Notes under the pieces: model-generated
What the model was told of the DNA's origin: nothing
The model's database searches: none
Seen by the model: only the letters and a program-made list of their open reading frames with translations
Origin: an uncultured Actinomycetes bacterium
GTDB taxonomy: Bacteria > Actinomycetota > Thermoleophilia > RBG-16-64-13
Direction of reading: 5' to 3'
Assembly: GCA_963775295.1 (NCBI GenBank)
Contig: CAVZIK010000006.1
Span: 762,218-826,217 of the forward strand
Length of the DNA: 64,000 nucleotides
Translations under genes and position numbers: made by a program
In this document: one piece after another, positions 19,045-48,375 of the stretch
How the letters are laid out: each line of letters starts with the position of its first letter
How positions within the stretch are numbered: position 1 is the first letter of the stretch

Positions 19045-19077
19045 GGTAATGCTTTCCGGCCTGCCGGACATATGATG
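19045..19077 (+). promoter_or_regulatory. regulon promoter-like motif copy 1: GGTAATGCTTTCCGGCCTGCCGGACATATGATG
   Basis: One of 10 copies of the consensus AAGGTAATGCTTTCGGcccNGCCGGACATATGATGAG; 41 nt upstream of the 19116 start. Confidence 0.5.
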
Positions 19078-19115
19078 TATTGGAACGCATGACGGGGTCA
19101 GAAGGAGTGGGGGCT

Positions 19116-21455
19116 ATGCAAAGATATGTCGGACCAGCGCTCATCGCAGCCATCCTGGGCGCCTTGCTCCTGCTCGGTTCCCCTACCCTCGCCATGGCCA
19201 TCGTCGATGTGGGCGGCTGGAAGGTCACGCTTGCCTCGAGTGCTGAGGACTACGAACAACCGAGCGTAGACGCTGGCAGGTTTGTCTGGTCTGACTATCA
19301 AATGGGTCAGGGCGGAGTGATCAAGCAGTACGACGTTGCAAGCGGGCAGGTCGAAACGCTCCTGCAAACCGATCTTCAACCGGCGTTCCCGATTATCAGT
19401 GGAGACTACGTCGTCTTCGAGGGTTACGACAACAAGGGCGGGCAGTCCGACTCCGGGATCTACCTTCTTTCCCTGGCTTCGAAGCAATTGCGCAAGCTGA
19501 GCGCCGAGGGCTGGCAGGGCCGAGGGCCCCTAGTATCTGGGGATGTCATAGCTTGGACGGAATGGCAGGTGAGTGACCAAGGCCTTTCTCACACGCGGAT
19601 TGTCCTTCACAGGCTCTCGACCGATCAGACGACTACGATTACTCAGGCCGAGCCGGGAACCGACCAAGTGACGCTATCTCTTGTCAGTGATCGCTGGGTG
19701 CTGTGGCGGCAGTTCAACTCGCAAGCGGGAAAGAACACGGTCGGGTACTCGATCGCATCCGGCGAGGGAAGAACCTGGGAAGTTCTCAAGAACGCCAATC
19801 TGCAGACCATCGTTGGCGATACCCTCTACTACACGCTCCAGGAAGGTTCCCAGTGGACTCTTCGCGCCCGCAATCTGGCGAGCGGGAGCGACATCCCTGT
19901 ACTTAGCAACGATCAGCCGATCCAGTCGGTGTGCGTGGATGGTGGCCGCATCGCTTGGGCCTCCACCAGTTCTCAGGGATCTTTCGTGGCCATCTCCGAT
20001 CCGCTACGCGGCACCAGCACCGTGATTCGCTGTCCTGCCTATGAAGTGGGTGGCTTGTCGTTCAAAGGCGATCTTCTTCTCTGGCGAGCAGGTCGGCTCT
20101 TCAATTCTCCCACCACCCCCGGGACCCACGTATTTGTCTATGATGCCTCCGATGGCACGGCAACTAGAGTGTCCACCATCCAGTCCTACCCTCACGGCTT
20201 CTCGACCGACGGAAGCACTATCGCCGTCAGTGAGAGCAGCTACCGCCCAGGCTACTTTGCTACCTCACTCATGTTCGCGACCAGAGGCGCTCTCGATAAG
20301 ACCAAGCTCTTCTCTGACGTTCCCGGCACGGACCCCTACTGGACGGCGATCGAAGGACTGCGGGAGAAAGGGGCCATCGGCGGATATCCTGGGAGCAGCG
20401 GGCAAGTCGAGTTTCGTCCAGCAGGTGCGCTCACGCGCAGCCAGTTCGCCAAGATGTTGTGTCTGGCCCTGGGCGAAACTGAAAGCAGTGACTATCTGAC
20501 GACGCTCGTCAAACTCGGCGTCCTTCAAGGAACTACCTCCGGCAATCTCAATCCCTATGGGCAACTCACCCGGGCACAGATGATAAGCATGGTGGTCCGC
20601 GCAGCCGACAGGTTGCGTCCTGCCGTGCTCTTCGGGCCGATTCCCAGCGGACCAAGTAGCACGCTTGGACTCTTTGATAGGACTCATGGCCTCACGCTTC
20701 GCCGAGCGGAGTGGGGTGGGTTGCTCGATGGTCTGGTGGGTTTCGACAAGACCTGGGACCCCTGGCGACCGGCGTCCCGCGCGGAGACGGCAGAAGTGCT
20801 TTGGAACCTGGCGTCCGTGGGCTTCAGTGATGTCACTGACACGAGTCCGACAGATCCGTATGTGCCGGCCAGGACCCAAGACGGGATTCCATCGCCAGTC
20901 TGGGACTCGGCCGTAGATGGCTGGATCACGTACCGGGGTAACGGTGCATTCCTCTCTGAGTTCGACCGTGCATTCTTCTGGCATGACGGCCACTTCGTGA
21001 ATGCCGACGGCAGTCTCATGCAGATCCCCCCTTCGGCCAAAGCCCATCTCCACGATCTCGGGATCGACAAGCAACCTTCGGCAGACGTCACCTATTACTC
21101 CGCGCCTAGGCTCCAGACGACTCCCCGAGCGGGAGTGACCCTGACGGTGACAACCAGCCAATGGACCGAGGGGCGGCTGACCGCGACAGTTGCCATCCGC
21201 AACACCAGCGGTTCGCCCTTCTCATTTGCCAACAAGGACCTCGCCCTTTACATGAGCGGCACCAGCGTGCAGCAGACGAATCTGCAGCTACGACCTTTCG
21301 AGGTTGCCGCCGGAGCGAGCGCCGCATTCCGCACTGATGTCTACTTCATCGTTTCCCAGTTCGATTCAGCGGCGAGCGGCATTCTGTATGCCTCAAGTGA
21401 TCCCGAGAGCCTGGGCTTCATCGCGAGCGCTGGTCCGACTCAGAGTGGAGACTGA
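19116..21455 (+). CDS. secreted multidomain protein: N-terminal beta-propeller-like repeats, central SLH repeats, C-terminal domain shared with anti-sigma 26980
   Basis: RBS GGAG; signal peptide ALIAAILGALLLLGSPTLAMA; SLH-like FSDVPGTDPYWTAIEGLREKGAIGGY…; C-terminus …LYASSDPESLGFIASAG is similar to …FYASSDPGSAGFNKMV of 26980. Confidence 0.75.
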   Translation: MQRYVGPALIAAILGALLLLGSPTLAMAIVDVGGWKVTLASSAEDYEQPSVDAGRFVWSDYQMGQGGVIKQYDVASGQVETLLQTDLQPAFPIISGDYVVFEGYDNKGGQSDSGIYLLSLASKQLRKLSAEGWQGRGPLVSGDVIAWTEWQVSDQGLSHTRIVLHRLSTDQTTTITQAEPGTDQVTLSLVSDRWVLWRQFNSQAGKNTVGYSIASGEGRTWEVLKNANLQTIVGDTLYYTLQEGSQWTLRARNLASGSDIPVLSNDQPIQSVCVDGGRIAWASTSSQGSFVAISDPLRGTSTVIRCPAYEVGGLSFKGDLLLWRAGRLFNSPTTPGTHVFVYDASDGTATRVSTIQSYPHGFSTDGSTIAVSESSYRPGYFATSLMFATRGALDKTKLFSDVPGTDPYWTAIEGLREKGAIGGYPGSSGQVEFRPAGALTRSQFAKMLCLALGETESSDYLTTLVKLGVLQGTTSGNLNPYGQLTRAQMISMVVRAADRLRPAVLFGPIPSGPSSTLGLFDRTHGLTLRRAEWGGLLDGLVGFDKTWDPWRPASRAETAEVLWNLASVGFSDVTDTSPTDPYVPARTQDGIPSPVWDSAVDGWITYRGNGAFLSEFDRAFFWHDGHFVNADGSLMQIPPSAKAHLHDLGIDKQPSADVTYYSAPRLQTTPRAGVTLTVTTSQWTEGRLTATVAIRNTSGSPFSFANKDLALYMSGTSVQQTNLQLRPFEVAAGASAAFRTDVYFIVSQFDSAASGILYASSDPESLGFIASAGPTQSGD

Positions 21456-21507
21456 GGCGGCCGGCGGACGGGGGCAGTTCGCATCCACTAGCGTCTGTCC
21501 ACGCAAA

Positions 21508-21538
21508 CGTAATGCTTTCGCCCCCGCCGGACATGTGA
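21508..21538 (+). promoter_or_regulatory. regulon promoter-like motif copy 2: CGTAATGCTTTCGCCCCCGCCGGACATGTGAT
   Basis: Consensus match; 40 nt upstream of ATG 21577. Confidence 0.45.
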
Positions 21539-21576
21539 TTCACAGAGGTACAGACGAGGCGGGCACTGGAGAGACT

Positions 21577-22263
21577 ATGGAAACGCAGCGGCAGCCGGAG
21601 GACACCACGCCATTTCTCAATCGATCTCGATCGGTGCTGCTCGGCGTAATCGTCTTGGCCATTGTTGTTGTGGTCGTCCTCATGCTTATGGGTCGCCTGG
21701 TGGTCTGGACCGAGCAGGTGAGTCTTCCGGCGCCGGTAGCCTCCGCAGGGACGGGCGATGTCTTCTACATCTCACAATTTGACGGGCCGATCCGGAACGC
21801 CTCGCCGAGCGAAGCGAAGCAAGGGACCGCGCAGGTATCCCTGGCCGTCTGGAACCCTGGATCAAGGAAGAATCTCGAGATCTTCTTCCAGTTGTGGCAC
21901 GCCGAGAAAACGGGCATCAAGAACCTGCGCGTTACACTGACGACTCCGAATGATTGGGGCGGGCTGCTCTTCTCCTTGCCCGAGGGCGACGGCTGGGGTC
22001 CCATGTTGCACAAGGCGAGCGGGGGCACGGTGACGGTTCAGTTCGACAAACTGGGCTGGAGCGCCCAAGGATACGTTGGGACTCTTCAGCTGCGTTTCTA
22101 CCCCGAGTACTTGGAATACGTCCTTACTCATGCCCAGGGCGACACGATTCACGCCGAAGTTGATTTCGACGTGGCTCCGACCGATTTTCCGCGCTTTCGG
22201 CAGTGGCACGTTCACGGCACCTGGCAGATTCCCGCGCTTCCGAAACAGGTCTTGGCGGGGTAG
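21577..22263 (+). CDS. membrane-anchored hypothetical protein (N-terminal TM helix, extracytoplasmic domain)
   Basis: RBS GGAGAG before ATG 21577; TM helix LLGVIVLAIVVVVVLMLMG; the track ORF 21304 start would run through the promoter motif. Confidence 0.55.
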   Translation: METQRQPEDTTPFLNRSRSVLLGVIVLAIVVVVVLMLMGRLVVWTEQVSLPAPVASAGTGDVFYISQFDGPIRNASPSEAKQGTAQVSLAVWNPGSRKNLEIFFQLWHAEKTGIKNLRVTLTTPNDWGGLLFSLPEGDGWGPMLHKASGGTVTVQFDKLGWSAQGYVGTLQLRFYPEYLEYVLTHAQGDTIHAEVDFDVAPTDFPRFRQWHVHGTWQIPALPKQVLAG

Positions 22264-22271
22264 TGGGTGAA

Positions 22272-22303
22272 GGTAAGCTGTCGGCCCTGCCGGACATATG
22301 ATG
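22272..22303 (+). promoter_or_regulatory. regulon promoter-like motif copy 3: GGTAAGCTGTCGGCCCTGCCGGACATATGATG
   Basis: Consensus match. Confidence 0.45.
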
Positions 22304-22389
22304 AAGTGAAGGCGTATGGTGAGGAGCTGAGCAGGATCGGCCGCGAAACGACTCACGTGGGTTCCCCATCTCGGGAGGAGAGGCCTCTG

Positions 22390-23406
22390 ATGAAGGTGAA
22401 TCATGATCTGCCCGGCTGTTCTCTTAAGCTGCGGGACACATTCAGGAACCGGAGCAAGATCTGGAAGGCAACCACCTGGCTCTTCTTCCTCGCGTTGGCA
22501 GGGATGTTTCTCTTCATCGGGACGGCGTGCGGAACAACGGGCACCGCTGGCGGCCTGGCCGTCGCCGCCAAGGACGGAAAGGCTCAAGCCGAGGATGTGC
22601 GAGCCAAGGCTTTGGCCGCTCTGCAAACCGTTGCGGCCTGGCAGGTGAAGACCACCTCCTCTGATGGGTGGGTCGAGACCGAATGGTGGTCGGCCAATTC
22701 CGGCAACTACCGTTGGGACGAAACCGTGGCTGGCAAGAAGCGATCTTCTCTGGGGACAGATGGAAAGGTGCTCATTGCTCCGGGTCCCGATGGTGCGGTC
22801 GTTGACCAACCACTCGGCCCGGCTGCCGGACGGCTGCCTACCTCCACCGTCTTTACGACCTACTATTCATATCTCAAGCAAGGGAAGCCGGTCACCGTGG
22901 GACAGTCTTCTGACGGAACGCTCAGGCTCGTGCTCAAAGACGCGCCGTCTTCCCTCTCCGCCGTGTTGGACACGAACTCCTATTTGCCCAGTGAGTTTCT
23001 CGGCAAGAGCGAGGAGACGGGTGCTGCCGGAGGGCACTTCATCCAATTGTCGCCCATCAGCTCTGACGATCTCGCGGCGGCGATTTCTGAGCTTCGAAAC
23101 ACACCTTCTCCAACCCGCGCCGATGTGACCCCGAAGGACCACCTGGTCAATGCGCTGAGGGCGGCGGGCATCGACTGCTATCGCGCCGACACCTACACCA
23201 ATCCCGAGAAGGAACGAGGACTGGAACTAAGCATCCAAGCGCCGATAGGCGAGGCAGGCCATGCACTTGCTGAGAAAGCGGTCTCGCTGGTGCGGGAAAA
23301 CCGGACCATTCTCCCGGTCGATTCGGTCACGATCTACCTACTCACTGTGACAAACGAGTTCTACAGTGAAACCTTCACCCTGGACTCCGTATCGTCGGGA
23401 CCATGA
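22390..23406 (+). CDS. putative lipoprotein (lipobox LFIGTAC)
   Basis: RBS GGAGGAGAGG; signal and lipobox sequence. Confidence 0.55.
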   Translation: MKVNHDLPGCSLKLRDTFRNRSKIWKATTWLFFLALAGMFLFIGTACGTTGTAGGLAVAAKDGKAQAEDVRAKALAALQTVAAWQVKTTSSDGWVETEWWSANSGNYRWDETVAGKKRSSLGTDGKVLIAPGPDGAVVDQPLGPAAGRLPTSTVFTTYYSYLKQGKPVTVGQSSDGTLRLVLKDAPSSLSAVLDTNSYLPSEFLGKSEETGAAGGHFIQLSPISSDDLAAAISELRNTPSPTRADVTPKDHLVNALRAAGIDCYRADTYTNPEKERGLELSIQAPIGEAGHALAEKAVSLVRENRTILPVDSVTIYLLTVTNEFYSETFTLDSVSSGP

Positions 23407-23447
23407 CCGACATCTTTTCGACACCGCCAGTGCCTGCCATTGCCAAC

Positions 23448-23480
23448 GTAATGCCCTCAGCCCTGTGTGACATTTGATGA
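23448..23480 (+). promoter_or_regulatory. regulon promoter-like motif copy 4 (divergent): CGTAATGCCCTCAGCCCTGTGTGACATTTGATG
   Basis: Weaker consensus match that keeps the GTAATGC and CATtTGATGAG blocks. Confidence 0.35.
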
Positions 23481-23567
23481 GTGAGGATTTGGGAGCTCTC
23501 GGCACGGTTGCGGCGTCAGACTGTGAGCTGGGCCGTCCGGAACTCGCCGTCTAACTGGGGGGATGAG

Positions 23568-24695
23568 ATGAAGCGGAGATTGCGCGGGCCAGATCGCTTG
23601 TCGCCCTCCACCGTTGCGATCCTCGGGCTGACCCTCATGCTCGTCCTGTGCTTGGTCGGCGTCCTTGTCTTCGGCTGCGCGTCGCCCAACCAGGCGGCAA
23701 GCACAACCTCGCAGACCTACGCACTGGGAGGATTGGACCCGGCCCTGGCCCAGTTGATCGATGAGGCGAGGGCTGCCGGTCTTCGGATGGGTGCGGCCGC
23801 GACGAGCCAAGGCGAACTCACCCTTGACGTCCTGACCCAGCCGGACCAGCCTGTGGGCGATTACGAATCTATCGCCCAGAAACTGCTCCTTCTCGCCCAG
23901 AAGTTCAAGGATCGATTCACCCAGTTCTCACCCAAGGTCGATCTCCTGCACGTTCGCGTCGCCTGGGCCGACACTCCCCAGCACTCGACGGCTCTTTATG
24001 ATCGCTACTTCCAGCTAACCATGCCTGCCCGAGTGAACACTCCGGTCAACATCAGCCTGAGCCTCGTTGCGGCCAACACCATAAAGTTTGGGGAGATCTG
24101 GGTCCGCGTCGCCCAGGCCGGGGGATTCGCGGCTGAGAGTGCATATCCCGATGCCTACCCAACAGGCTTGGATCTGGACTTCACGCCGTCTGGCTCCCTG
24201 TTCCAGTTGGAGATTGTCGCCCGCACTCACGACCAAAGAACCATCAGTGTGGCCTGGAGCGGATCTGATGGAGCGGCAGACCAGAGAGTGCTCGTGACCG
24301 GAGTGGTGAAGACGGGATCGGCTACGGAACCGATCGTGACCTTGGATTCCGTGTCGAGAGTCGCTGCTGCTTTTGATGAGGTGGGCGTCAAGAGCATGAT
24401 CGCGCTGATGCCAACGGTCCACCTTGGTGGTTACTACGCCCTTAGGCCTGTCCTTCACGCGGGCAGCACCAGAGGCGGCTCGATTCCGGCAATGGTGACC
24501 GCCTACCTGTGGGACTCCACGAAACTCGTGCCCCTGGATGCCAACGACCCGATCCGCATCGGCAATGCTCCCTACCTCATGCTGGAACTATCTTGGGTCG
24601 GACCTGGCGTTCAGCCGCCTGGCACCGCGGTTGCACCTATGCCCCCTGCGCTTCCCAGTCCAGTCTTCTTTGCCATCCCAGTGCCGGTGCTGTGA
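23568..24695 (+). CDS. putative lipoprotein (lipobox LVFGCAS)
   Basis: RBS GGGGGATGAG; ATG 23568 is in frame with track ORF 23481. Confidence 0.55.
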   Translation: MKRRLRGPDRLSPSTVAILGLTLMLVLCLVGVLVFGCASPNQAASTTSQTYALGGLDPALAQLIDEARAAGLRMGAAATSQGELTLDVLTQPDQPVGDYESIAQKLLLLAQKFKDRFTQFSPKVDLLHVRVAWADTPQHSTALYDRYFQLTMPARVNTPVNISLSLVAANTIKFGEIWVRVAQAGGFAAESAYPDAYPTGLDLDFTPSGSLFQLEIVARTHDQRTISVAWSGSDGAADQRVLVTGVVKTGSATEPIVTLDSVSRVAAAFDEVGVKSMIALMPTVHLGGYYALRPVLHAGSTRGGSIPAMVTAYLWDSTKLVPLDANDPIRIGNAPYLMLELSWVGPGVQPPGTAVAPMPPALPSPVFFAIPVPVL

Positions 24696-24705
24696 GCGAC
24701 GCCAA

Positions 24706-24736
24706 GGTAATGCTTTCGGACCCGCCGGACATATAC
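24706..24736 (+). promoter_or_regulatory. regulon promoter-like motif copy 5: GGTAATGCTTTCGGACCCGCCGGACATATAC
   Basis: Consensus match. Confidence 0.45.
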
Positions 24737-24778
24737 TTGGCAGGTAGCTAGAGGGTGACGGCAGAAGGAGGTTCGCCC

Positions 24779-25306
24779 GTGCTACGTGCAAGACTCGGGC
24801 TGGGCGCAGCCCTGTTGGGGTTCTGGATAGTTCTGATGGAGTTGGGCTTCACCGCATACGGCTTCATCTGGATATACCGGTTGATTCACAACCCCGCCGT
24901 GTTCATCGGCCTCATTCCCACCGTCGCCCTATACCTCCCCGGCTTCATCTTGGCGTTGGGCTGCCTTCTTGGTGGGGTTGCTCTTTACCAGGCCGTCCGG
25001 GGCCGGTCGCATTGGAGTTGGTACGCCGCCGCCCTTGCGCCAGTCGTTGCCATCCTTGTCATCTACCGACCTGGGCTGGGCATCAGCGGCTTCGATGGCT
25101 TTCACGCCACGGTGCCATGGATGGCCCCCATGTACTGGGGCAGAGAGGGAAACATCGCCTTCTCCGTCGGCCTTCAGGTCGCCATGTACGTGGCGGCTGC
25201 CGCTTTAGGCTTGGCCGTCGTTCTCGCATTGCCATCTGGACACGCACGTGGAGAGGATGCGACGACTGCCCCCGTCGTCGGTCCCGTGAAAGCGAGCGCA
25301 GAATGA
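24779..25306 (+). CDS. polytopic membrane protein (4-5 TM helices)
   Basis: GTG 24779 sits 7 nt after GAAGGAGG (the track uses GTG 24755); strongly hydrophobic. Confidence 0.5.
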   Translation: MLRARLGLGAALLGFWIVLMELGFTAYGFIWIYRLIHNPAVFIGLIPTVALYLPGFILALGCLLGGVALYQAVRGRSHWSWYAAALAPVVAILVIYRPGLGISGFDGFHATVPWMAPMYWGREGNIAFSVGLQVAMYVAAAALGLAVVLALPSGHARGEDATTAPVVGPVKASAE

Positions 25307-25827
25307 CACTCGCCCAAGGAATGAGACTCGGCCAGTGGTGGTCCAGACTCAAGGCGCGTCCGACATGCCCGCATGAATGGGAGTTGGTCCGACGCTACGA
25401 AGTGCCCGACTCAGACGGCGGCTATCCTCCCGGCGTGAATTCACACATGCGGCCGGTGTACGTCTCCCGCGGCAGACTATCCGGCAAAAGGAAGACTGGG
25501 GACTCAAGAATGATGCCGCTGGGTTTCGTCAATGAGGCCAAGAAGAACTGCCGCCATGTCTGGAGGCTAATCGACACCTGGGAAGATAGCGATGAGTACA
25601 GAGACGTGGCCGCTAGCTTGGACGCTCGCGATGGGAAAGTGAGTTGGGGCCAATCGGGCTATGAATATCAGAAGAGCGTGCATCTCAATCTTCTCCGCAA
25701 GCGAACGTGCAGAGAGTATCGATGTGACATCTGTGGGGCGACCAAGACCGTCTGCGACCCTGGGGTTCTTGAGCCGAGATGGTTCTGGGCGAAGGCGGCC
25801 GCCTTGCTCAGAAGAATGAAGCGGTGA
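25303..25827 (+). CDS. hypothetical protein (174 aa) with Cys motif CDICGATKTVCDPG
   Basis: ATGA overlap with the upstream stop; in frame with the 3' part of track ORF 25012. Confidence 0.45.
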   Translation: MTLAQGMRLGQWWSRLKARPTCPHEWELVRRYEVPDSDGGYPPGVNSHMRPVYVSRGRLSGKRKTGDSRMMPLGFVNEAKKNCRHVWRLIDTWEDSDEYRDVAASLDARDGKVSWGQSGYEYQKSVHLNLLRKRTCREYRCDICGATKTVCDPGVLEPRWFWAKAAALLRRMKR

Positions 25828-26192
25828 CCGAACCGCATTCGGACAAACGCTTCTCGTTGCAAGGTGTGCGGCTTCTTGTCGTGGCTGCGATTGTCGTTCC
25901 GTTCTTTCTTGGAGTTGTACTGTTCGCTCAGTGGACACTGCCGGACGTCTTCAACTTTGTAGGTCAGGCGCCGCTGATCGGAGGATTCCTCATCGGTGTC
26001 GTCAAGGGCATAGACTGGATGTACACTCTGCACCTTTCCGCAGGCAGTGCAGGCGGCGAGGTTGTGCCTTTCGGTTTGTACCCGATCTTGGCTTTGGCGT
26101 TTGGCCTCAAGAAGCGGTACGTGGCCGCCGCCATCGTTCTATTCGTTCCGCTGATTCTTCTGTGGCTGCTCTCGGCCAGCCTGCAAGACTAG
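25779..26192 (+). CDS. small membrane protein (3-4 TM helices); start uncertain (alternatives TTG 25856 or GTG 25865)
   Basis: ORF track; hydrophobic helices. Confidence 0.35.
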   Translation: MVLGEGGRLAQKNEAVTEPHSDKRFSLQGVRLLVVAAIVVPFFLGVVLFAQWTLPDVFNFVGQAPLIGGFLIGVVKGIDWMYTLHLSAGSAGGEVVPFGLYPILALAFGLKKRYVAAAIVLFVPLILLWLLSASLQD

Positions 26193-26256
26193 GACCGATC
26201 GACTTGACCACGCTCTGTTTTTGAAATCCGCCTTTGTTCTTGCCTCACCCGCCCAA

Positions 26257-26285
26257 GGTAATGCTTTCGGCCCTTCCGGACATGC
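26257..26285 (+). promoter_or_regulatory. regulon promoter-like motif copy 6: GGTAATGCTTTCGGCCCTTCCGGACATGC, upstream of ECF sigma copy 3
   Basis: Consensus match about 205 nt upstream of the sigma-3 TTG start. Confidence 0.45.
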
Positions 26286-26491
26286 GCAGGGAATCTCTGG
26301 CTAGTCCAGTTCTGGCCCAGTTGCCAGAGCGCGTCACAAGCCCTGAACTGCCCCGCGACCACAAAGTAAAGAAAATCGCCCCGTCAGACGTCGTTCATGG
26401 TGGATGATTGAACACCGGGTAGGCGGTTGGAGGCGGAGCGACGGATCGGGTTGAGGTCATTGACGCACCACATGGCAAGAGGAGTTGGGCG

Positions 26492-26983
26492 TTGAGCCAC
26501 GAGGTAGAGTGGCCAAGCGCATTCGACGCTATCGTCCACGCACACACCGCCCGACTGGTGAAGAGCTTGAGCCTCATCACCCTTGACCGGGGACTGGCCG
26601 AGGATGCAGCTCAAGAGGCCTTCCTCCAACTGCATCTTCACTGGCATGATCCAGAAGTGAAGGACCCCGTTGCCTGGCTCTACCGGGTCGGCATCAATCG
26701 TTGCAAGGACTATCGCCGGGCCATGGGCAGAGCCACTCGTCTGAGGCAGCGTTTAGCCGGGAGCTTCGAGGAGTTCACGCCCCCAGCCTGGACGCCGGAC
26801 CCCGACCTTATGAGCATTCTTCGCCCCTTACCGAAGCGCCAACGCACCGCAGCCTCTCTCTTCTACCTGGCCGGTTTCTCCACCTCTGAGATCGCACGAG
26901 CCATGGACATCTCTGAGGGGGCCGTCGGCAGTCATCTCCACAAGGCCCGAGAAGCACTGCGCAAGATCTTGGAGGAACAGTGA
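26492..26983 (+). CDS. ECF sigma factor, copy 3
   Basis: TTG start 8 nt after AAGAGGAG; region 2 AEDAAQEAFLQLHLHW…WLYRVGINRCKDYRR; region 4 QRTAASLFYLAGFSTSEIARAMDISEGAVGSHLHKAREAL. Confidence 0.85.
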   Translation: MSHEVEWPSAFDAIVHAHTARLVKSLSLITLDRGLAEDAAQEAFLQLHLHWHDPEVKDPVAWLYRVGINRCKDYRRAMGRATRLRQRLAGSFEEFTPPAWTPDPDLMSILRPLPKRQRTAASLFYLAGFSTSEIARAMDISEGAVGSHLHKAREALRKILEEQ

Positions 26984-29381: not shown

Positions 29382-30231
29382 CCCTATTGGATCTTGGCGT
29401 CGTGCGCAGAGCACATGCTTGTTGAGGTCAACCCGCCTGATACTTGGGCGGGCTGACCTCGCAAAACTGAGGCTTTCAAAAACTCCAGATTACTCAGGTT
29501 GTCGGCGAATACCATTGAATCAACGTATGGATCTTGGGTTCCATCAAGGTTCCTCTGCTATGCGGTGGACTTGCAGGAGCACGGCTGGGTGGGTATGTCG
29601 CCTCACTAGACCAGATGGGATCGATGCACTCCCGCCGAGTGACCTATCTAATCGATCAGCCGTCAGGCTCCGGTGGCGTTTCGTCCGAAAAGGTTGACAC
29701 GGTCCGAATAACAGCAACCGATGCAAACGGTAATGAGGGCTGTCATACATTGAAACCATGATTGCTCATTTGCAGGCAACGCTGAAGCGATAGGACATGC
29801 CTTCGGGTCAATTCGAACCGACACAAGGATTAGGAATTCCCGAGATTAACGTCCGCTGTGTGCCACAGAGGCCCGTGTGCTCGTATAACGTGCCCGCCGC
29901 GCATCGGGATGTATCGCCCCCATTCGCGGGTTTGGCTGTCAGTTTGGCTGTCAACCTGACCGTTCGTTACTCAAAACCCTGTTCGTCTGAGCAATGGCGC
30001 GGCTTGTCCCAACGCAGGGCGTCCTTTGCAGCGAGGCGAGGGACTGGGGGCTTCCGGAAACTCCGCGGAATCGCTCAACCATGCTCTTGGCCGGCGCTTG
30101 TGTTCGATAACCTAAAAGTTGACCACTTGGAGGCCGTTCGTTCATCGAAAAGTTGACCACCTTCAATACAAGTCCTGTACCGTCTTCCCCTCTTGGGAAC
30201 TGGCGGGACAGGGGGAAGGCATGTGCTGAAG

Positions 30232-37411: not shown

Positions 37412-37714
37412 ATGGAGGTTCTCGAGTCTTCCCTCTCCGGTGTTCCCTTGATTCGAGTGGTCGGTGACGTCGATCACTACACCTCGCGTGCCCTCGATGG
37501 GGCCGCCCGAGAGGCGCTCACTCATGACAGTGGCCGCCTCCTTCTCGATTTCAGCCGCTGCCTCTATGTTGACAGCAGTGGGGTGGGTGTCCTCGGGGCA
37601 AGCGTGAACCTTTTACGGGTCTTTGAGATCGTGGGCCTTCTGAATGAGCCCTGCTTTCGGGTCTTCGCCGATGAAATGGAGGCGTCCGCTGCTCTTTTGG
37701 ATGCCGCCCGTTGA
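37412..37714 (+). CDS. STAS-domain anti-sigma-factor antagonist (SpoIIAA/RsbV-like)
   Basis: 100 aa; …LLLDFSRCLYVDSSGVGVLGASVNLLRVFEIVGL…. Confidence 0.7.
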   Translation: MEVLESSLSGVPLIRVVGDVDHYTSRALDGAAREALTHDSGRLLLDFSRCLYVDSSGVGVLGASVNLLRVFEIVGLLNEPCFRVFADEMEASAALLDAAR

Positions 37715-40700: not shown

Positions 40701-41532
40701 TGGTCCCCACCGCTTCTCGGCCGCTGAGATTGATTTTGGCCAGAAGCTGGCGGTCTCGGTAGCGCTTGCCTTGGAGAACGCCCGCTTATTCGAGCAGCAG
40801 CGTAGTATCGCGGCGGCGTTGCAGCAAACTATCCTTGAGATGCCGGCCGCCATCCCTCATCTGCGTTTTAGCCACCTCTATCGCTCGGCCACGGAGCACG
40901 CGCTGGTGGGCGGCGACTTCTATGACGTCTTTGAGATGGAAGACGGATCTATCGCCCTGCTTGTGGGCGACGTCTCCGGTCATGACATCAACGCCGCTCG
41001 GATAGCCACCATGGTAAAGGCGAGTCTCGTCGCCTTCGCCCAAGGCGGCCACGATCCGAGCAACGTTCTTGCTCTGGTCAATCGGCTGCTGCTGAGGAAA
41101 TCAGTCCCTGGATTCACAAGTCTCCTGTTTGCCGTGTTCCAGCCCGAGTCTGGGATGCTCACCTATTGTTCCGCCGGCCATCCCGAGCTTCTGGTTGGTC
41201 GTGCCGGCAAGGTGGAAAGCTTGGCCGCACCGCGCCACGCTCCTCTGGGAGTCTTTTCCGAATGGTCGTGCGCTTCGGATAGCGTCCAACTCGAAGCGGG
41301 AGACACCCTTCTCTTCTACACCGACGGACTGACGGAAGCACGCCGGGACGAAGAGCTTTTCGGCGAGGAGCGCCTGATGGAGGCATTTGAAGGTAAGCTC
41401 CGTCTCCCCCTTGAAGAGTTGCCCCAGATGCTTCTTGACGAGGTCCTTGAGTTCACTGGTGGGAGACTGCAGGATGACGTGGCCATCCTAGCCGTTCAGC
41501 CCTTGCTTCAAAGCTCGGCGATCAGGAGCTAG
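37711..41532 (+). CDS. 1273-aa signalling fusion: N-terminal RsbW-like HATPase Ser-kinase domain + about 5 PAS/PAC domains + coiled coil + GAF + C-terminal PP2C (SpoIIE/RsbU-like) phosphatase
   Basis: ATGA overlap with the STAS gene; N-terminus …VAVSEATANAIEHA…; repeated PAS blocks; C-terminus GDVSGHDINAARIATMVKASL…LFYTDGLTEAR. Confidence 0.85.
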   Translation: MNAASPRPSGSPLRLTIPADLARLPEARAWIGEIACSACINDSRRFDLQVAVSEATANAIEHAASGVGLTAYLLPDRLIVEIVNDGVFQPGLFKDDEHRRRGLGLPLMVSLADQVHVSRIADNKTKVSLTFFLEAGDQRDVPLSGAAEGVEPHAESASADFGMQEVENRYRNLLDLSPDAILVHLDGRYVFANPAAARLFGARSAGELIGKSAVERMHPDDREFMVHRLSQVLAGAVAPPAEGRMLRLDGTLVAVEAAGSRVEFGGRLAVQTIIRDITERKQAELALRESERTIRESEERYRNLFNTLIEGFCIIEVLFDAADMPVDFRFLETNPMFEEQTGLHDVQGKLMRELAPDHEEHWFQIYGRVALTGEPARFQAPASALGRFLDVSAFRVGGSESRQVGILFSDITARKRTEDALQETLERYSLLAGVIENASQPVGVGFSDGRLGVFNRAYVDLLGYSEEEFRSLNWSTDLTPPEWQEFEAARLAELEMTGESITYEKEYVCKDGSRIPVELLVHLARDANGAPLYYYSFISDLTERRRAEETLRESEQRFRSVLDSSLDGLYRVNLQTGRYDYMSPAFGPTVGRSNEEFTRLSPESAIRLVHPDDLPRVLASLGQQEVAVTGEVDYRILGSDGEYRWISNHFSQVTDAKGKPLYRHGVVRDISEQQRAAEELRRSEATLAAIFDATTESIWLFSPDGMILAGNSIAVNRIGRPSEEIIGKHISEVLTAELAGTRLERLRQVVESGQPLEFEDARAGRAFLHTFYPELDDQGHVTRVASFSRDVTEAKQAEVEREQLLQEEQELSEGLAAANEELETQYEEISAQAEELQAQREELAVQNEEIRVAHEELAVLYEHERENARLKDALTRVDQTLIASLEPTEILDRALENGARALGAERAVLEVRSPIGWEVRSVYRLPVELVGTLLSSEEASVANAMEEAGSVLIIGDATGDLRVNASTVARYGTAAALALPISYQNRIMGSLQFLYASGPHRFSAAEIDFGQKLAVSVALALENARLFEQQRSIAAALQQTILEMPAAIPHLRFSHLYRSATEHALVGGDFYDVFEMEDGSIALLVGDVSGHDINAARIATMVKASLVAFAQGGHDPSNVLALVNRLLLRKSVPGFTSLLFAVFQPESGMLTYCSAGHPELLVGRAGKVESLAAPRHAPLGVFSEWSCASDSVQLEAGDTLLFYTDGLTEARRDEELFGEERLMEAFEGKLRLPLEELPQMLLDEVLEFTGGRLQDDVAILAVQPLLQSSAIRS

Positions 41533-42072: not shown

Positions 42073-42098
42073 GGGTTCGAGGCCTGCGGGGGGTCCTG

Positions 42099-42485: not shown

Positions 42486-42610
42486 CGGCTCCCGTACTTG
42501 CGGCCATGCTCGCGGAGATGGGGTTGACCTACAAGTGAGGCGTTTCTCTCACTCTCATGACTGGTGCATGAAGAAGGTTTCGATTCCTCCTGTGTGCGTG
42601 CTCGGTCAAA

Positions 42611-42650
42611 GGTAATCCTTTGCGGCTTGCCGGACATATGATGAGGCAGA
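42611..42650 (+). promoter_or_regulatory. regulon promoter-like motif copy 8: GGTAATCCTTTGCGGCTTGCCGGACATATGATGAGGCAGA
   Basis: Consensus match. Confidence 0.45.
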
Positions 42651-42917: not shown

Positions 42918-45308
42918 GTGGCCGCCGCCCTCATCTTGGGGGCCCTGTTCGCATTCATACTGACTGGAGTTGCCCTGGCCGCGCCTCCTTGGTCAGATGC
43001 GACGAACGACTTCTGGTCGTCCGCCTATGGCGTCAGCGACGTTCAGGTGGGAACCGTGGCTGGGGGATATGCCGACGGCACCTTTCTCCCCAACCAGCCC
43101 GTCACTCGGGCCGAGTTTGTGAAAATGGCTATCTCCGGACTCGCAGTCGCCACGAAGAACCCGGCCACGCCGACGTTCATGGACGTCCTACCCGACTCCA
43201 CCTTCTACACCTACGTGGAGGCTGCCTACGCCGCCGGCCTGGTCAAAGGTGAGACCACGCCTGCCGGTCTTCTCTTCGGACCGAACGCCGAGATCTCCCG
43301 GCAACAGGCCAATAGCATTCTCGGGCGTTACCTCTCGGGACAGGAGATCGGGGCCACTGGCGCCATTACCGGCGGACCTGGCAATCAGGAAAGCTCCCGA
43401 TATCCTTCGCTCGACGCCTGGTATGCGGGCGGGGGGGACTACTACCTCGGTTGGTTTAGGGATCGTGGCCAGGTCTTGCCCGACCACGCTGTCAGCACCG
43501 CCTATTTGGTTTCTCTACGAGTGATCAAAGGCTCCGATGGAAAACTGAGTCCAGAAGCCAAGCTCCGCCGGGCCCAGGCCGCCACAATGGTTCTCCGAGT
43601 CAAGGACGTGAGCTTTGCCCCCACCGTCGTCTACCTTCAGCCGACCTCCGGACCGGTGGCCGGCGGCACCACCGTCATCATGGCCGGTAACCGCCTCACC
43701 GGCGCCACAGCCGTCACCTTCGGGGGCACGAACGCGACCAGTTTCCGTGTTGACACTGACAACCAGATCACAGCCGTCGCCCCGGCTCACGCAGCCGAAA
43801 CGGTAGATGTGCAGGTAACGACGCCCGCCGGTTCGAGTGCCACCGCCGGGGCAGGCGACGACTACGCCTACACCGCGGCCCTTCCCAGCATCACCCTTCT
43901 TAGTCCGACGAACGGCTCCACAACTGGAGGCACTGAGGGCTCCGCGGTGATCATAAAGGGCTCGGACCTGATCGGCACCACCTCCGTCATGTTCGGCACC
44001 ACGGCCGCGACCAGCTTCAGGGTCAACTCCAGTAGCGAGATCTGCGCTGTCGCCCCGGCCCACGCCGCCGGCACGGTGGATGTGATCGTCACCACCTCGA
44101 ACGGCGCCAGCGTCCCCACCGCCGCCAGCGTGTACGAGTATGTAGACCTGTTCCCCTCGTTGCCGCTCGACACGCCGGTCGACGTGGTGCGACGCACGGC
44201 GTCGCCTTGGATCTGGAGCGCCGCGGTGGCGGGACGAACGGTCGCCTACGAAGAAAGTCCCACCTGGACCTTGTGGCCGCCGGGTGCGGAAATGGCTCCA
44301 CAAACCGCAGTGGCAAAGACGCTTGACCTGGCAACAGGGGAAGAGTCCACCGTTCCGGGGAGCGAGACCGCCCCTCCGCACTTCACGAACTTCTCCACCT
44401 GGCCTTGGTGGTTCCTATCCGCCCTTCCCAATCCTAAGGACAACGGCGCCGGAGCCTCGCTTGTCTGGGGAGTCGTGAACAACCAGTACATAGGCGGCGG
44501 CATCCCCCGCTACCAGAACGTCTCGGGCGCGGCCGACGGTGGAATAGCCAGGGCGCTTCTTGACCCTGCCACCATGACCCTCCCGCCCATCCGTACCGGC
44601 GACGTTCTCGTGCTTCCCCGCACCACCCCGGCCTACGAGAACGCGCACCTCGGCAACGTGGGCACCACCCTCGGCTACCAACTCCTCATCCTCACCGGGA
44701 GTCTGGAGAAGCCGGTTGTGGTTGATCCCACAGGCCCGCGGCTACCCGCGGTCGCTCTTGTCGGGATAAGCCCATACGTCTCCTGGTTCGGCTTCTTCAC
44801 GCAGGACGCGAGCCAGTTCCGCAGTGATCTTCCCGGCCGCCCGCCCCGGGTGTTTGATCTGCGGACCGGGAAGCTCGTTGATATTGCTGTTGCCGACCCG
44901 CGCACTCCGGATCGTGCGACGGCCTGTGTGGTTGCTGGTCACTGGGCGGCCTGGGTAGCGGTCGATGGCAGTCCCCAAAGAAACAGCCTCTATTTGGCCA
45001 ACCTTGCGACCGGCCAGGCCCGCAGACTCGCCGACGGGAATGGCCCGAGCGGGGACATAACGCTTTCGGATGACTGGCTGCTTTGGACCGACGCCACGGG
45101 AACCCTCGCCGGCTTTCACCTTCCGGACATGACGCCGGTCAAGGTGCCGGGGGTACTTGCCTCCGGCGAGAACGCCAGGAAGCTCCAAGTATCGGGCGAT
45201 CTTGCCGTCCTTATGGTGGTCGCTCCTGGCGGTGACCCGGAATACAACAGCATCAACTTCGAACCACCGCCGCGGTGGACCGCCATCCGGGTGGTGAGGC
45301 TGCGCTGA
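42918..45308 (+). CDS. secreted SLH-domain protein with two IPT/TIG domains and a C-terminal beta-propeller-like region
   Basis: GTG start; signal peptide LILGALFAFILTGVALAA; SLH repeats; IPT/TIG blocks PTVVYLQPTSGPVAGGTTVIMAGNRLTGATAVTFGG…. Confidence 0.75.
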   Translation: MAAALILGALFAFILTGVALAAPPWSDATNDFWSSAYGVSDVQVGTVAGGYADGTFLPNQPVTRAEFVKMAISGLAVATKNPATPTFMDVLPDSTFYTYVEAAYAAGLVKGETTPAGLLFGPNAEISRQQANSILGRYLSGQEIGATGAITGGPGNQESSRYPSLDAWYAGGGDYYLGWFRDRGQVLPDHAVSTAYLVSLRVIKGSDGKLSPEAKLRRAQAATMVLRVKDVSFAPTVVYLQPTSGPVAGGTTVIMAGNRLTGATAVTFGGTNATSFRVDTDNQITAVAPAHAAETVDVQVTTPAGSSATAGAGDDYAYTAALPSITLLSPTNGSTTGGTEGSAVIIKGSDLIGTTSVMFGTTAATSFRVNSSSEICAVAPAHAAGTVDVIVTTSNGASVPTAASVYEYVDLFPSLPLDTPVDVVRRTASPWIWSAAVAGRTVAYEESPTWTLWPPGAEMAPQTAVAKTLDLATGEESTVPGSETAPPHFTNFSTWPWWFLSALPNPKDNGAGASLVWGVVNNQYIGGGIPRYQNVSGAADGGIARALLDPATMTLPPIRTGDVLVLPRTTPAYENAHLGNVGTTLGYQLLILTGSLEKPVVVDPTGPRLPAVALVGISPYVSWFGFFTQDASQFRSDLPGRPPRVFDLRTGKLVDIAVADPRTPDRATACVVAGHWAAWVAVDGSPQRNSLYLANLATGQARRLADGNGPSGDITLSDDWLLWTDATGTLAGFHLPDMTPVKVPGVLASGENARKLQVSGDLAVLMVVAPGGDPEYNSINFEPPPRWTAIRVVRLR

Positions 45309-45551
45309 GACCCGGTTGCGTGAATCTCCACCAGCGTCTCCGAAATGAGTTTGCGGGCAGTGAGCGGTGGGCAGCCGGCCGAAGGGCAGTAGGTGGTGAG
45401 CATGCGACCAAAGCCATACGCAAGGATTGGCCGATTGGTGACGGCGGTAGCCAGAGTTTGTGGGAGGCTTCTGACATCAGCACCATGAGCCAATTGTGTG
45501 CACATACGTTCCCCGCAGTCACGTAAATTCGATCCGCGTCGCACGCGCCAA

Positions 45552-45590
45552 GGTAACGCTTTCGGGGCAGCCGGACATATCATGAGTGAG
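45552..45590 (+). promoter_or_regulatory. regulon promoter-like motif copy 9: GGTAACGCTTTCGGGGCAGCCGGACATATCATGAGTGAG
   Basis: Consensus match. Confidence 0.45.
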
Positions 45591-45675: not shown

Positions 45676-46965
45676 GTGCGGGTAAGAACGAGTTGGGCAA
45701 CTCTAATCTGCTTCAGCATGCTTCTTGTCGTGATCGGTCTCTCGGCATCAGCCTGCGGGACGTCTCCTAACCCTGAGACACAGGTATCGGGCGACTCTGC
45801 GTCTGCCGTCCTAGCGGGTGAGCCCCAGGTCGATCCATCTACCCAGGCACAGAAGGATATGCATGCGGTTGCGGCAGACAACAACGCCTTCTCTTTTGAC
45901 CTCTTCCGGGTCATCCGGTCGAAGAGTGACAACCTGGTCATCTCTCCCTACGGTCTCTCGGTCGTGCTTTCCATGACCATGGCCGGGGCCAAGGGAGAGA
46001 CTCGCCAAGAGATGGCAGACGTACTGCATCTCAGCCTTGCCGAGGGCCAACTCTACCCGGCCCTCGGTGCACTTGCCTCCTCGCTTGCCGACATCGAGGA
46101 CTTCACCTCTGCCTCCGCGCTCTGGGACCAGACCGGACTGAACTACAAGTCCGATTTCATCGACCTGCTGGGATCGACCTATGGCGCGCCTCTGAGACTG
46201 GTCGACTTTGACAACTACGGGGAAGCGGCAAAGACCATAAACGACTGGGTGAGCAAGAACACCAACGGTCGCATACCGGAGTTGGTCGACGTGAACGCTC
46301 CTCGGCCGGACACTATCATCATGATGCTGACAAATGCCGTCTACCTGAAGGCTACGTGGCAGAATCCCTTCTCGTCGCAGGCAACGAGCAACCGGACGTT
46401 CCATTTGCTGGGTGGAACCACTGCCGAGGTTCCCACTATGAGCAGCACCGGCAGCTTCAACTACCTCAGCGACTCAGGCTTTGATGCGGTCGAGCTTCCC
46501 TACAAGGACGGACGACTCTCGCTCGTCGTCCTTGCTCCGAAGACGGGGGACTTCGAGAGCTACCTGGGAGAGATGACCACCGAGGTCCTCGAAGCAACTC
46601 TTTCTCAAATGAAGCAGGGACAGGTGGAGCTGCGACTTCCCCGGTTCACCTTCACCTCATCGCCGGATGTCACAAGGACACTGAAGGCCATGGGAATGAG
46701 GACCCCGTTTGCTTCGCAGGCGGACTTTTCCGGCATAACTGCAATGCAGGCCGAGATATCGGCCGTGGTCCAGAAGGCATTCATCGTCGTCAATGAGGAA
46801 GGCACCGAAGCTGCGGCTGCATCCGGGGTGACCGTGGCAGCTGAAGCTACCACGACGTCAGAACCAATCCCCGTCCTTAGCATCGACCGTCCTTTCTACT
46901 ACCTCGTCCGGGACCACGAGACGGGCACTATCATCTTCCTTGGTCAGGTGACGGACCCGCGATGA
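45676..46965 (+). CDS. serpin (serine protease inhibitor) lipoprotein
   Basis: GTG 45676 sits 7 nt after GGAGGGGG; lipobox LSASACG; serpin core FSFDLFRVIRSKSDNLVISPYGLSVVLSMTMAGAKGETRQEM…; C-terminus FLGQVTDP. Confidence 0.9.
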   Translation: MRVRTSWATLICFSMLLVVIGLSASACGTSPNPETQVSGDSASAVLAGEPQVDPSTQAQKDMHAVAADNNAFSFDLFRVIRSKSDNLVISPYGLSVVLSMTMAGAKGETRQEMADVLHLSLAEGQLYPALGALASSLADIEDFTSASALWDQTGLNYKSDFIDLLGSTYGAPLRLVDFDNYGEAAKTINDWVSKNTNGRIPELVDVNAPRPDTIIMMLTNAVYLKATWQNPFSSQATSNRTFHLLGGTTAEVPTMSSTGSFNYLSDSGFDAVELPYKDGRLSLVVLAPKTGDFESYLGEMTTEVLEATLSQMKQGQVELRLPRFTFTSSPDVTRTLKAMGMRTPFASQADFSGITAMQAEISAVVQKAFIVVNEEGTEAAAASGVTVAAEATTTSEPIPVLSIDRPFYYLVRDHETGTIIFLGQVTDPR

Positions 46966-48293
46966 GGTCTTGCTGGCTTGCCTGGATATCAGTGAAACCT
47001 GGGCCACGGGCAGCGGGATCGGCAGTGCTCTGCGGACTGCTGCTGGTCGCACTGGCTCTTGTCCTAGCGTCGTGCGGCTCTGCCCCTTCTCCTCCTGGTC
47101 CTGCTGCGACCGTGTCGACAACGTCGAGTTCTTACACCACCGGGGCAGTCCCGTCCACAACAACGAGCGCTTTCACCGGCGGTCCTTCTGCCTCTGATCT
47201 TCCGGGCGCTTTTCCCACAAGCCTGAATGTGGGCGATCGGGTGCTGCACATGCGTAGGTCGTTTACCGCGCTCGCCGCCCCAGGCGTCGAGACCGATGAC
47301 TACTGGCAGCAGCCTTCGACAGGGAAGTTCCATGAGGAAGCGGTACGACCGGCGTGGTTTCAGGAGTTCAAAGTGTTCACCGGAGATCGAGTGCAGGGCT
47401 ACCGCCTGGAGAAGCTGAGCAACGGAGCCAACCAGGCATACGACTTTTCCTACAACGCGTACATGGCCTCGATCCTTGAAAACAAGACGGATCCCAAATC
47501 CTTCGACCAAGGAGAGATCGGGAACCGGGTGACGGAGATCAAACAGGCGGTGGCATCGGGTGACCTTCAGGAGGTCGGTTCGGAGACCAGGGACGGGCGC
47601 ATCCTTGTCCAATACGAGGGCGTTGTTTCGACGACCGCGTTGCGCAGAGCAGTTCTGGTCGACCAGGCCACGGGCTTTCCCCTTGAGGACAAGGACTATC
47701 GCGCTGATGGGGTTCTCTACGACTCTCAAACGTTTGATCTCGAGGTTCTTGATGACGCGGACGTAGTCGACTTGTTTGCCCCTCTGGCGTTTCCCGAGGG
47801 TGTGAAGGTGATGAAGGATGAGGATCTGCCCGTGTCGCCGGTTACCGGGACGGAGGCATCGTTGCAGCTTCTGAAGGAGGCGGCGGCGCGAGTATCCTTC
47901 CCGCTCTTCTACCTCGGCTGGTCCTATCAGCAACTTCCACTTGAGCTCGTCAACGGCGGGCAGGCTCTGCGAACGTCTGCGCCACTTGAATCTGTGAGCC
48001 TGTCGTACAGGGGAACCGACGCAGGTGGGCTTGTAGATGTGGGAGTGCTTGAGTTTGATCCCGCCGTCACAGAAAGGCTGCACAAACCGTTCTCGGGCTG
48101 GACCGTGGTCGAGAAGGTCAAGGTCGGAAATCAGATCGATGTGATCTACCGGGCGAGTGACGCGGGACATTACCTCTTCTACGTAACTTTGCGCGGCAAC
48201 ACCGAGATCGATATCTATGGCATGACGAAGACCGGAGGCGCAACTGCGTCCGAGCTTACAGAGATCGCCAAGTCGCTGGTGCCGTTCCCGTAG
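46962..48293 (+). CDS. putative lipoprotein (lipobox LVLASCG), co-transcribed with the serpin
   Basis: ATGA overlap with the serpin stop; Ser/Thr-rich linker. Confidence 0.6.
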   Translation: MRSCWLAWISVKPGPRAAGSAVLCGLLLVALALVLASCGSAPSPPGPAATVSTTSSSYTTGAVPSTTTSAFTGGPSASDLPGAFPTSLNVGDRVLHMRRSFTALAAPGVETDDYWQQPSTGKFHEEAVRPAWFQEFKVFTGDRVQGYRLEKLSNGANQAYDFSYNAYMASILENKTDPKSFDQGEIGNRVTEIKQAVASGDLQEVGSETRDGRILVQYEGVVSTTALRRAVLVDQATGFPLEDKDYRADGVLYDSQTFDLEVLDDADVVDLFAPLAFPEGVKVMKDEDLPVSPVTGTEASLQLLKEAAARVSFPLFYLGWSYQQLPLELVNGGQALRTSAPLESVSLSYRGTDAGGLVDVGVLEFDPAVTERLHKPFSGWTVVEKVKVGNQIDVIYRASDAGHYLFYVTLRGNTEIDIYGMTKTGGATASELTEIAKSLVPFP

Positions 48294-48338
48294 GGACGCC
48301 CCATCGGCAACGGCTCTCAGAGTATCTAGACCGCGTTG

Positions 48339-48375
48339 ATAACCATTTCAGGCCTACCGGAAATATGATGAGCGA
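48339..48375 (+). promoter_or_regulatory. regulon promoter-like motif copy 10 (degenerate): GATAACCATTTCAGGCCTACCGGAAATATGATGAGCG
   Basis: Keeps the TAAC…TTTC…CCGGAaATATGATGAG blocks. Confidence 0.3.

Follow-up and report, generated by a model that had tools for sequence, protein, structure and literature searches.

An extended promoter-like motif upstream of envelope genes and its relation to ECF sigma-gene promoters in an uncultured Thermoleophilia bacterium

A 64,000-nt stretch of DNA from an uncultured bacterium of the Thermoleophilia (lineage RBG-16-64-13; contig CAVZIK010000006.1 of assembly GCA_963775295.1, positions 762,218 to 826,217 of the forward strand), referred to here as the window, contains a motif of about 40 nt that recurs upstream of genes for mostly exported proteins. 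It raises the question of what reads such a signal, and why so much of it is conserved. The original prediction, made from the sequence alone, listed ten copies between positions 19,045 and 48,375 and took them for promoters of a regulon tied to extracytoplasmic function (ECF) sigma factors. Sequence comparison suggests that the motif, here termed class B, is probably a promoter read by RNA polymerase with an ECF (group 4) sigma factor, marking a cell-envelope regulon of SLH proteins, lipoproteins, membrane proteins and a serpin. Two of its features appear notable: a non-canonical CAT core at the -10 position, and conservation over the whole polymerase footprint.

A recurrent intergenic motif

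With no more than three mismatches allowed, each half of the consensus has six matches in the 64-kb window, where 0.32 and 0.12 are expected for the two halves. A 38-nt position weight matrix (PWM), which the original prediction had proposed building, was made from the nine full copies. These score 40–49 bits, far above the best score of 16.5 bits in the shuffled sequence used as control. All ten sites listed earlier are present, with coordinates right to within 1 nt, and a further site at 61100, beyond the range covered at that time, scores 21 bits. The total for the window is nine full copies plus a half copy (35746) and a hybrid (61100), and every one of them is on the plus strand.

Copy 19045 (19043–19079, GTAATG-N17-CATATGATG; PWM score of 46.9 bits) lies 5' of a gene for an SLH/beta-propeller protein with a likely start at 19116, whose product has an SLH match in Pfam and a signal peptide. 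Signal peptides, lipoboxes and transmembrane anchors were judged from the N termini by eye, without a predictor. The copy at 21506–21542 (44.8 bits) precedes the gene for a membrane-anchored protein (start 21577, for which the start codon and Shine–Dalgarno sequence were examined). Lipoprotein genes, both with a readable lipobox, follow copy 22272 (22269–22305; 40.5 bits; start 22390), in which the spacer is 1 nt shorter, and the copy at 23445–23481 (40.3 bits; start 23568). Copies 24706 (24704–24740; 47.1 bits) and 26257 (26255–26291; 43.5 bits) are without the ATGATGAG extension that is described below, copy 24706 having TATACT instead. The former precedes the gene for a polytopic membrane protein (start 24779), and the latter is a distal site of the ECF gene sigma3, with 201 nt between the motif end and the start codon. 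A copy at 42609–42645 (49.3 bits) ends 273 nt from the start of a gene for a protein with SLH and IPT/TIG domains (42918–45308; Pfam), and a copy at 45550–45586 (47.8 bits) heads the genes for a serpin lipoprotein (start 45676; Serpin in Pfam, 1.8e-99) and then a lipoprotein (46962–48293), lipoboxes being read in both. The copy at 48336–48372 (39.8 bits), with ATAACC as the -35 and AAT as the -10, precedes the gene for a small secreted protein (48447–48785). Site 61100 (61098–61134; 21.1 bits) is intermediate in sequence, with GTAAAG-N17-CGTG and the class-B-like TTTC and CCCGGA, and lies 5' of an open reading frame (ORF) for a 64-residue lipoprotein (61156–61350). That ORF (lipobox LFIAGCG) sits 5' of a DUF2807 gene at 61554.

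The half copy (35746–35775) consists of GCCGGACATATGATGAGGTAGAGGCG only, which is intact, with no GTAAY at the right distance. It precedes an MtaA/URO-D-like gene and adjoins the 5' end of a tyrosine integrase gene (34870–35778, minus strand). Its -35 half was probably lost by insertion or recombination; a search for the missing half at the far end of the integrase-borne element, at no more than three mismatches, found none.

The placement of the copies is that of a promoter-type signal. The nine full copies lie 8–244 nt past the stop codon of the preceding plus-strand gene, and site 61100 lies 851 nt past it. Between the CAT triplet and the likely start codon that follows it are 32–283 nt, mostly 45–100 nt, in agreement with the 40–280 nt reported earlier. 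All ten of ten sites are intergenic, an outcome with a chance of about 1e-7 given that at most about 20% of the window is non-coding. The earlier statement that the products are mostly exported also holds: 10 of the 12 downstream genes encode exported or membrane proteins, with a signal peptide, lipobox or membrane anchor in the products of 19116, 21577, 22390, 23568, 24779, 42918, 45676 (the serpin), 46962, 48447 and the small ORF at 61156. The exceptions are sigma3 (26492) and the MtaA/URO-D-like gene behind the half copy. Pfam places SLH domains in 19116, SLH and IPT/TIG domains in 42918 and a serpin in 45676, and gives no domain matches for most of the remaining products. In an all-against-all BLASTP comparison the downstream proteins are mutually non-paralogous; the similarity upstream is therefore no by-product of gene duplication. 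A strictly intergenic, co-oriented position before unrelated genes supports the view that the motif behaves as a promoter-type signal.

Two further SLH-domain proteins, one of them fused to staphylococcal-nuclease and lamin-tail domains, are encoded at 9910–12122 on the minus strand, neither with a motif copy. The motif set thus does not take in every SLH gene.

Conservation in distant organisms

A scan of genome and metagenome contigs with GTAATGCTTTC-N7-CCGGACAT returned one true copy and otherwise chance matches. The true copy is a perfect one, in an intergenic position on a 1-kb metagenome contig (L008). The protein encoded after sigma3 has one distant homologue, of 50% identity, on a 12-kb contig (L012). 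This contig carries three motif copies, each directly 5' of a gene; one of these genes encodes the 50% homologue of the sigma3-linked anti-sigma ectodomain and another a lipoprotein. The L012 copies read GGTAAC-N13-CCGGACATATGATGAGGTAAGGGCG, and bring the copies from other organisms to four in all. Seven lineage-specific downstream proteins, searched as one concatenated query, led to no further motif-bearing contigs.

The DNA flanking the motif in L012 does not align with the window outside the motif itself, of which CCYTGCCGGACATATGATGAG is the most conserved stretch. Recent paralogous expansion of whole upstream regions, one of the explanations offered in the original prediction, is ruled out as the reason for the length of the motif, since the motif is kept in L012 where neutral DNA has been randomized, and a perfect copy is present in L008. 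To judge from these comparisons, the whole motif block is under selection.

Length by common descent, rather than by function, would also be expected of a recently spread 'mobile promoter' or dispersed repeat. Similar sequence stands 5' of unrelated genes, a pattern described for mobile promoters (PMC3488235). Mobile elements (IS256, IS21 and an integrase) abound here, and the spacer is more uniform within the genome than between genomes. Such an origin is nevertheless very unlikely, and L012 and L008 go most of the way to refuting it: L012 retains the block, CCYTGCCGGACATATGATGAG above all, at 50% protein identity with unalignable flanks, and the conservation of the block has sharp edges with no terminal repeats and no target duplications.

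The mobile elements of the window comprise an IS256/Mutator-family transposase gene (2010–3263), IS21 istA/istB (30193–32438) and the tyrosine integrase gene mentioned above. IstB has at least 90% identity to a protein of 'Actinobacteria bacterium RBG_16_64_13'; together with the sigma homologue found in that metagenome-assembled genome, it points indirectly to a probable place of the lineage among deep-branching Actinomycetota. In the two foreign contigs, an element of about 90 nt (GAGTTCGGGGGCAACTCGGGGGCAAACTCG...ACACCG.ATA.CAGA) is conserved directly 5' of a class B copy (L008 595–680, L012 9775–9860). It comes after tRNA-Ser(CGA) in L012, is absent from the window and has no counterpart in Rfam; it could be what is left of an integration site, or else a small RNA.

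Relationship to sigma-gene promoters

The window contains three ECF-type sigma genes, sigma1 (14617–15156), sigma2 (about 16859–17383) and sigma3 (26492–26983; Sigma70_r2 and Sigma70_r4_2 in Pfam). The products of sigma1 and sigma2 are 85% identical in a BLASTP local alignment, and both have about 53% identity to that of sigma3. Behind each sigma gene lies a gene for a single-pass protein, and a short N-terminal domain is common to the three. In the case of sigma3 the anti-sigma-like gene overlaps it (26980–28842, plus strand, the pair spanning 26492–28842), and its product shares the N-terminal domain with those of 15153 and 17380. Such an arrangement fits the single-pass proteins being anti-sigma factors.

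All three sigma genes are headed by a sequence of a second kind, here termed class A, on the plus strand: GTAAAG-N18-CGTC at 14546–14573 (sigma1) and 16775–16802 (sigma2), and GTAAAG-N17-CGTC at 26366–26392, the proximal site of sigma3, which is also found 5' of sigma homologues elsewhere. The window has four matches to GTAAAG-N17/18-(C)GT(C/T) against 0.84 expected, three of the four at sigma genes. A protein homology search with sigma3 yielded many homologues of 60–88% identity, and GTAAAG-N17-(C)GT(C/T) was found about 50–180 nt before the sigma homologues of eight organisms (L013, L014/L015, L016, L017, L018 and duplicates, L025 and duplicates, L031, and L032), L016 being 'Actinobacteria bacterium RBG_16_64_13'. 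GTAAAG is present in every homologue upstream region examined except that of L031, which has GTAAAC. For sigma1 and sigma2, no close orthologue appeared among the 120 matches listed, the identity being 60% at most. On this evidence class A appears to be the conserved promoter of this sigma family, presumably autoregulatory, and it has the classical ECF look of an AA-rich -35 and a GTC-type -10 (PDB entries 4LUP and 2H27, as cited in PMC6338062). The original prediction had placed a GGTAAY-N13-CGTCT promoter at sigma1 and sigma2. GGTAAY-N13-CGTC does occur there, but in a register 5 nt off GTAAAG-N17/18-(C)GT(C/T), and the homologues lack GGTAAY; the earlier register is corrected accordingly.

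When the motif is read in the class A register, GTAAYG-N17-CAT(A) stands against GTAAAG-N17-CGT(C), and the bases ahead of the -10 triplet are CGGA against CAGA (CGGACAT against CAGACGT). The -35 is GTAAT or GTAAC in 13 of 15 sites, and the A of GTAA is invariant, as in the AAC-like -35 of ECF promoters. The spacing is N17 (N16 in copy 22272), within the 16–18 nt of ECF promoters. The -10 triplet is CAT in 11 sites, AAT in one, CAC in one of the L012 copies (L012c), and CGT only in site 61100 and in L017B. The last of these is the site orthologous to copy 26257 in L017, whose sigma factor is 88% identical to sigma3. Site 61100 (GTAAAG-N17-CGTG, with TTTC and CCCGGA) and L017B (GTAACG-N17-CGTG) are intermediates that join class B flanks with CGTG. 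Class A spacers score above background on a class B spacer matrix (Fisher combined p = 2.6e-5 over 8 sites, to which base composition contributes), and the L014 spacer ACGGCCTGCCCGG resembles CCGGCCTGCCGGA in copy 19045 (p = 1.4e-3).

The same -35, the same geometry and the intermediates make the motif a close relative of the ECF sigma-gene promoters, with which it also has in common the GA before the -10, the middle T and the flavour of the spacer. It differs from class A in an A for G before the invariant T of the -10 triplet and in its own flanks, namely TTTC after the -35 and the ATGATGAG extension. Class B heads envelope genes, and a sigma gene only at the distal site of sigma3, whereas class A (the 'AAC' -35, 'CGT/GTC' -10 type) heads sigma genes. 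The ECF-like layout put forward in the original prediction is right as to architecture; in the class A register, however, the -10 is CAT(A) at 17 nt from GTAAYG, and neither CGGACAT/CGGAC nor CATATG.

A 60-nt direct repeat, which begins with a tandem GCACCCCTAC(C/G)C GCACCCCTACC, occurs at 14478–14537, 16455–16514 and 16707–16766. At sigma1 and at sigma2, one copy directly adjoins the GTAAAG-N18-CGTC promoter on its 5' side; the remaining copy is an orphan, with the 15153 gene before it and sigma2 after it. The repeat could serve to bind a regulator, or it could stem from duplication of sequence upstream of a promoter. The sigma3 leader (26278–26491, aligned with L017 1658–1785) lies inside a 743-nt alignment of 82% identity that takes in leader and gene. 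It holds CTCTGGCTAGTCCAGTTCTGG, which is able to fold into a short hairpin, and GGTGGATGATTGA, which follows the class A -10; from this alignment the leader appears more conserved than would be expected of a spacer between two promoters.

Conservation beyond the -10

The original prediction also pointed to conservation in the spacer and past the -10, and this is borne out by the block kept across L012 and L008 and by the ATGATGAG extension, which is present in about 10 of 15 sites. Four sites (24706, 26257, 61100 and L017B) keep the -35, the spacer and GGAC(A/G)T without ATGATGAG, which makes the extension an accessory element outside the core. TATGAT or another TANNNT hexamer stands at one fixed place in about 10–11 of the 15 sites, and an overlapping TANNNT, the sigmaA/sigmaB -10 motif, is common in sigmaD promoters (PMC13537577). 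Our best guess is that part of ATGATGAG is such an overlapping TATGAT -10 for the housekeeping sigma factor, the alternative being an operator or discriminator contact. The second bound factor put forward in the original prediction is likewise a possible cause of the additional conservation.

The same hexamer could be given the leading part: in a housekeeping (sigmaA-type) promoter with TATGAT as its -10, GTAATGCTTTC...CCGGACA would be bound by a dedicated transcription factor, and this activator or repressor would define the regulon. Actinobacterial sigmaA promoters often require TANNNT alone (PMC13537577), and a transcription-factor site would account for the conserved 'spacer'. We consider this unlikely, if worth keeping in mind. 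A sigma-70 consensus scan of 18900–26600 gave 0 sites, with no TTGACA-like -35. The 26257/L017B pair and site 61100 keep the upstream block but have no TANNNT, and the block is in register with the promoters before the ECF sigma genes of many organisms. Nor is the weak dyad in the spacer maintained, with 71% paired compared with 70.6% in shuffles and the dyad lost in L012.

A group-3 (SigB/SigF-type) sigma factor, controlled by the partner-switching module in the cluster, is a still less probable reader. The mycobacterial SigF consensus is GGWWT-N16-17-GGGTAY, to which GGTAA-N16-GGACAT bears a loose likeness, and partner-switching genes lie inside the window. Yet the hallmark GGGTA is absent, the invariant bases being G-A-C-A-T; no group-3 sigma gene is present in the window, and the partner-switching genes are without a motif copy. 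Nor would a SigB/SigF promoter explain the intermediates, or the agreement in register with the promoters of the ECF sigma genes. Promoters for sigma-54 (GG-N10-GC), sigma-28 (TAAA-N15-GCCGATAA) and Bacillus sigmaH, sigmaE and sigmaK, compared by eye at the level of their consensus sequences, misfit in spacing or core bases.

The partner-switching module spans 37412–41532. It consists of a STAS anti-sigma-antagonist-like ORF (37412–37714) and an overlapping gene (37711–41532) for a 1,273-residue protein with an RsbW-like kinase, several PAS domains, a GAF domain and a PP2C/SpoIIE phosphatase.

Conservation past the -10 could instead belong to the transcript, the motif being a cis-regulatory RNA (a hairpin, a K-turn or C-box-like element, or a mini-ORF) in a 5' leader made from a promoter further upstream. 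The consensus allows a hairpin UUCGGC-CCU-GCCGGA, ATGATGAG is similar to a C box, and short ORFs with an ATG start begin in the motif. The conserved leader RNA proposed in the original prediction gains no support from the comparisons made, however, and a signal of this kind is highly improbable. Rfam has no family at gathering score in a strict or a permissive scan. The hairpin (TTCGGC-CCT-GCCGGA) displays no covariation, its pairing equals that of shuffled controls, and its left arm varies without compensation. Predicted leaders are no stabler than shuffles (mean z of minimum free energy = -0.04) and have no common fold. The mini-ORFs that start at ATGATG, read by eye, are conserved neither in length nor in sequence. 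Several copies, moreover, lie only 8–11 nt past the previous stop codon, too close for a further promoter to fit in between, though transcription could read through from the gene before. One sub-threshold Rfam match, to the archaeal C/D-box family sR32 at 48361–48417 (21.9 bits, the gathering score being 40; E = 0.13), was judged a chance match caused by the C-box-like ATGATGAG.

The candidate sigma factor

For an ECF promoter of class B, GTAAYG would be the -35, followed by a GC-rich 17-nt spacer and by CAT(A) as the -10 core. Transcription would start about 8–10 nt past the -10, in or just after GATGAG, giving most genes 5' untranslated regions of about 25–90 nt. The reader would most likely be an ECF paralogue of the sigma1–3 family whose -10 preference is altered or relaxed so that A is taken for G ahead of the invariant T. 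Sigma1–3 have the putative -35 recognition helix in common and differ in the loop before DPVAWLY; by analogy with E. coli sigmaE, this loop may act in the choice of the -10. ECF sigma factors can overlap at the middle base of the -10 triplet, as do sigmaD (GAT) and sigmaH (GTT) (PMC6338062), and a single sigma factor that reads class A and class B at different strength is likewise possible.

Several findings speak for a local sigma factor. Motif genes are located between the sigma2 and sigma3 operons. One of the L012 motif genes is homologous to the sigma3-linked anti-sigma ectodomain, the C-terminal domain of which is found in the 19116 product too. The distal copy of sigma3 is kept, in diverged form, in L017. 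As the second and distal site of that gene, copy 26257 lies 109 nt upstream of the class A promoter, and targeting of sigma3 through it could constitute a cascade or feed-forward arrangement. Alternatively, the reader may be an unlinked paralogue elsewhere in the genome that also drives sigma3.

Other observations weigh against reading the motif as an ECF promoter. The CG/GTC core typical of an ECF -10 is absent in 12 of 15 sites, and the conserved spacer and 8–20 nt past the -10 extend beyond the usual sigma contacts. The three linked sigma genes and all homologues examined are headed proximally by class A, not class B. Among the sigma genes examined, none has class B as its sole promoter, and sigma1 and sigma2 are without class B. 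The motif is also absent from about 106 kb around the sigma3 homologues of seven other organisms. This absence, and the class A promoters heading every sigma gene examined, count against a local sigma factor as well. Of the regulon tied to ECF sigma factors in the original prediction, the ECF-type promoter and the copy 5' of sigma3 are upheld, but to call the motif the autoregulatory promoter of sigma3 would be too simple, since class A is proximal and conserved there.

One further proposal goes beyond an ECF promoter of the usual kind. The whole RNA-polymerase footprint, from about -38 to +10, might be selected across distant organisms by an ECF sigma factor with unusually extensive contacts (a CAT -10 without CG, recognition of the spacer, and a ATGATGAG discriminator) or by a dedicated co-factor over the -10/+1 region. 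We regard this as doubtful. If it is true, such contacts or such a co-factor would amount to a sub-type of ECF promoter recognition with a mechanism of its own, in which two paralogous sigma factors might use a common -35 and spacing and be kept apart by nothing but the -10 triplet and the flanks. New sigma–DNA contacts or a co-factor would be of interest for the engineering of orthogonal ECF promoters; otherwise the motif would be a normal regulon signal. In either case a candidate envelope regulon and its promoter are defined in a lineage of which little is known. The two promoter classes agree in -35 and spacing and differ in the -10 core; beside three paralogous ECF sigma/anti-sigma pairs, they would provide a compact natural test case for the insulation or overlap of sigma factors.

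Comparison with known promoter systems

Mobile promoters (PMC3488235) resemble class B in that very similar upstream regions stand before non-homologous genes within one genome. The class B similarity, in contrast, covers only about 45 nt and is kept between distantly related organisms, which points to functional constraint and not to recent copying.

The nearest described class appears, from its sequence, to be that of the actinobacterial sigmaD promoters, which have GTAAC(A/G)-N16-18-(C)GAT and drive envelope genes (PMC6338062, PMC13537577). C. glutamicum has the form GTAAC(A/G)-N17-18-GAT (PMC6338062), and M. abscessus has GTAACA/G-N16-CGAT (PMC13537577). Class B comes close to them in its -35 (GTAAYG), has the same spacing, with 17 nt leading to the triplet, and likewise has a triplet of the form xAT. 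Both sets of genes, moreover, are cell-envelope, secreted and lipoprotein genes, and both kinds of promoter frequently have an overlapping TANNNT. They differ in the triplet, GAT in sigmaD promoters and CAT in class B, and in the additional conservation of class B in the spacer and 8–20 nt past the -10. The sigma factors of the window are unassignable to sigmaD: their best NCBIfam match is SigE-fam_strep, below its cut-off, and the closest solved structure is that of SigL. Set beside these systems, the motif most likely belongs to an ordinary type of regulon signal, and stands out by its -10 core and by the length over which it is conserved.

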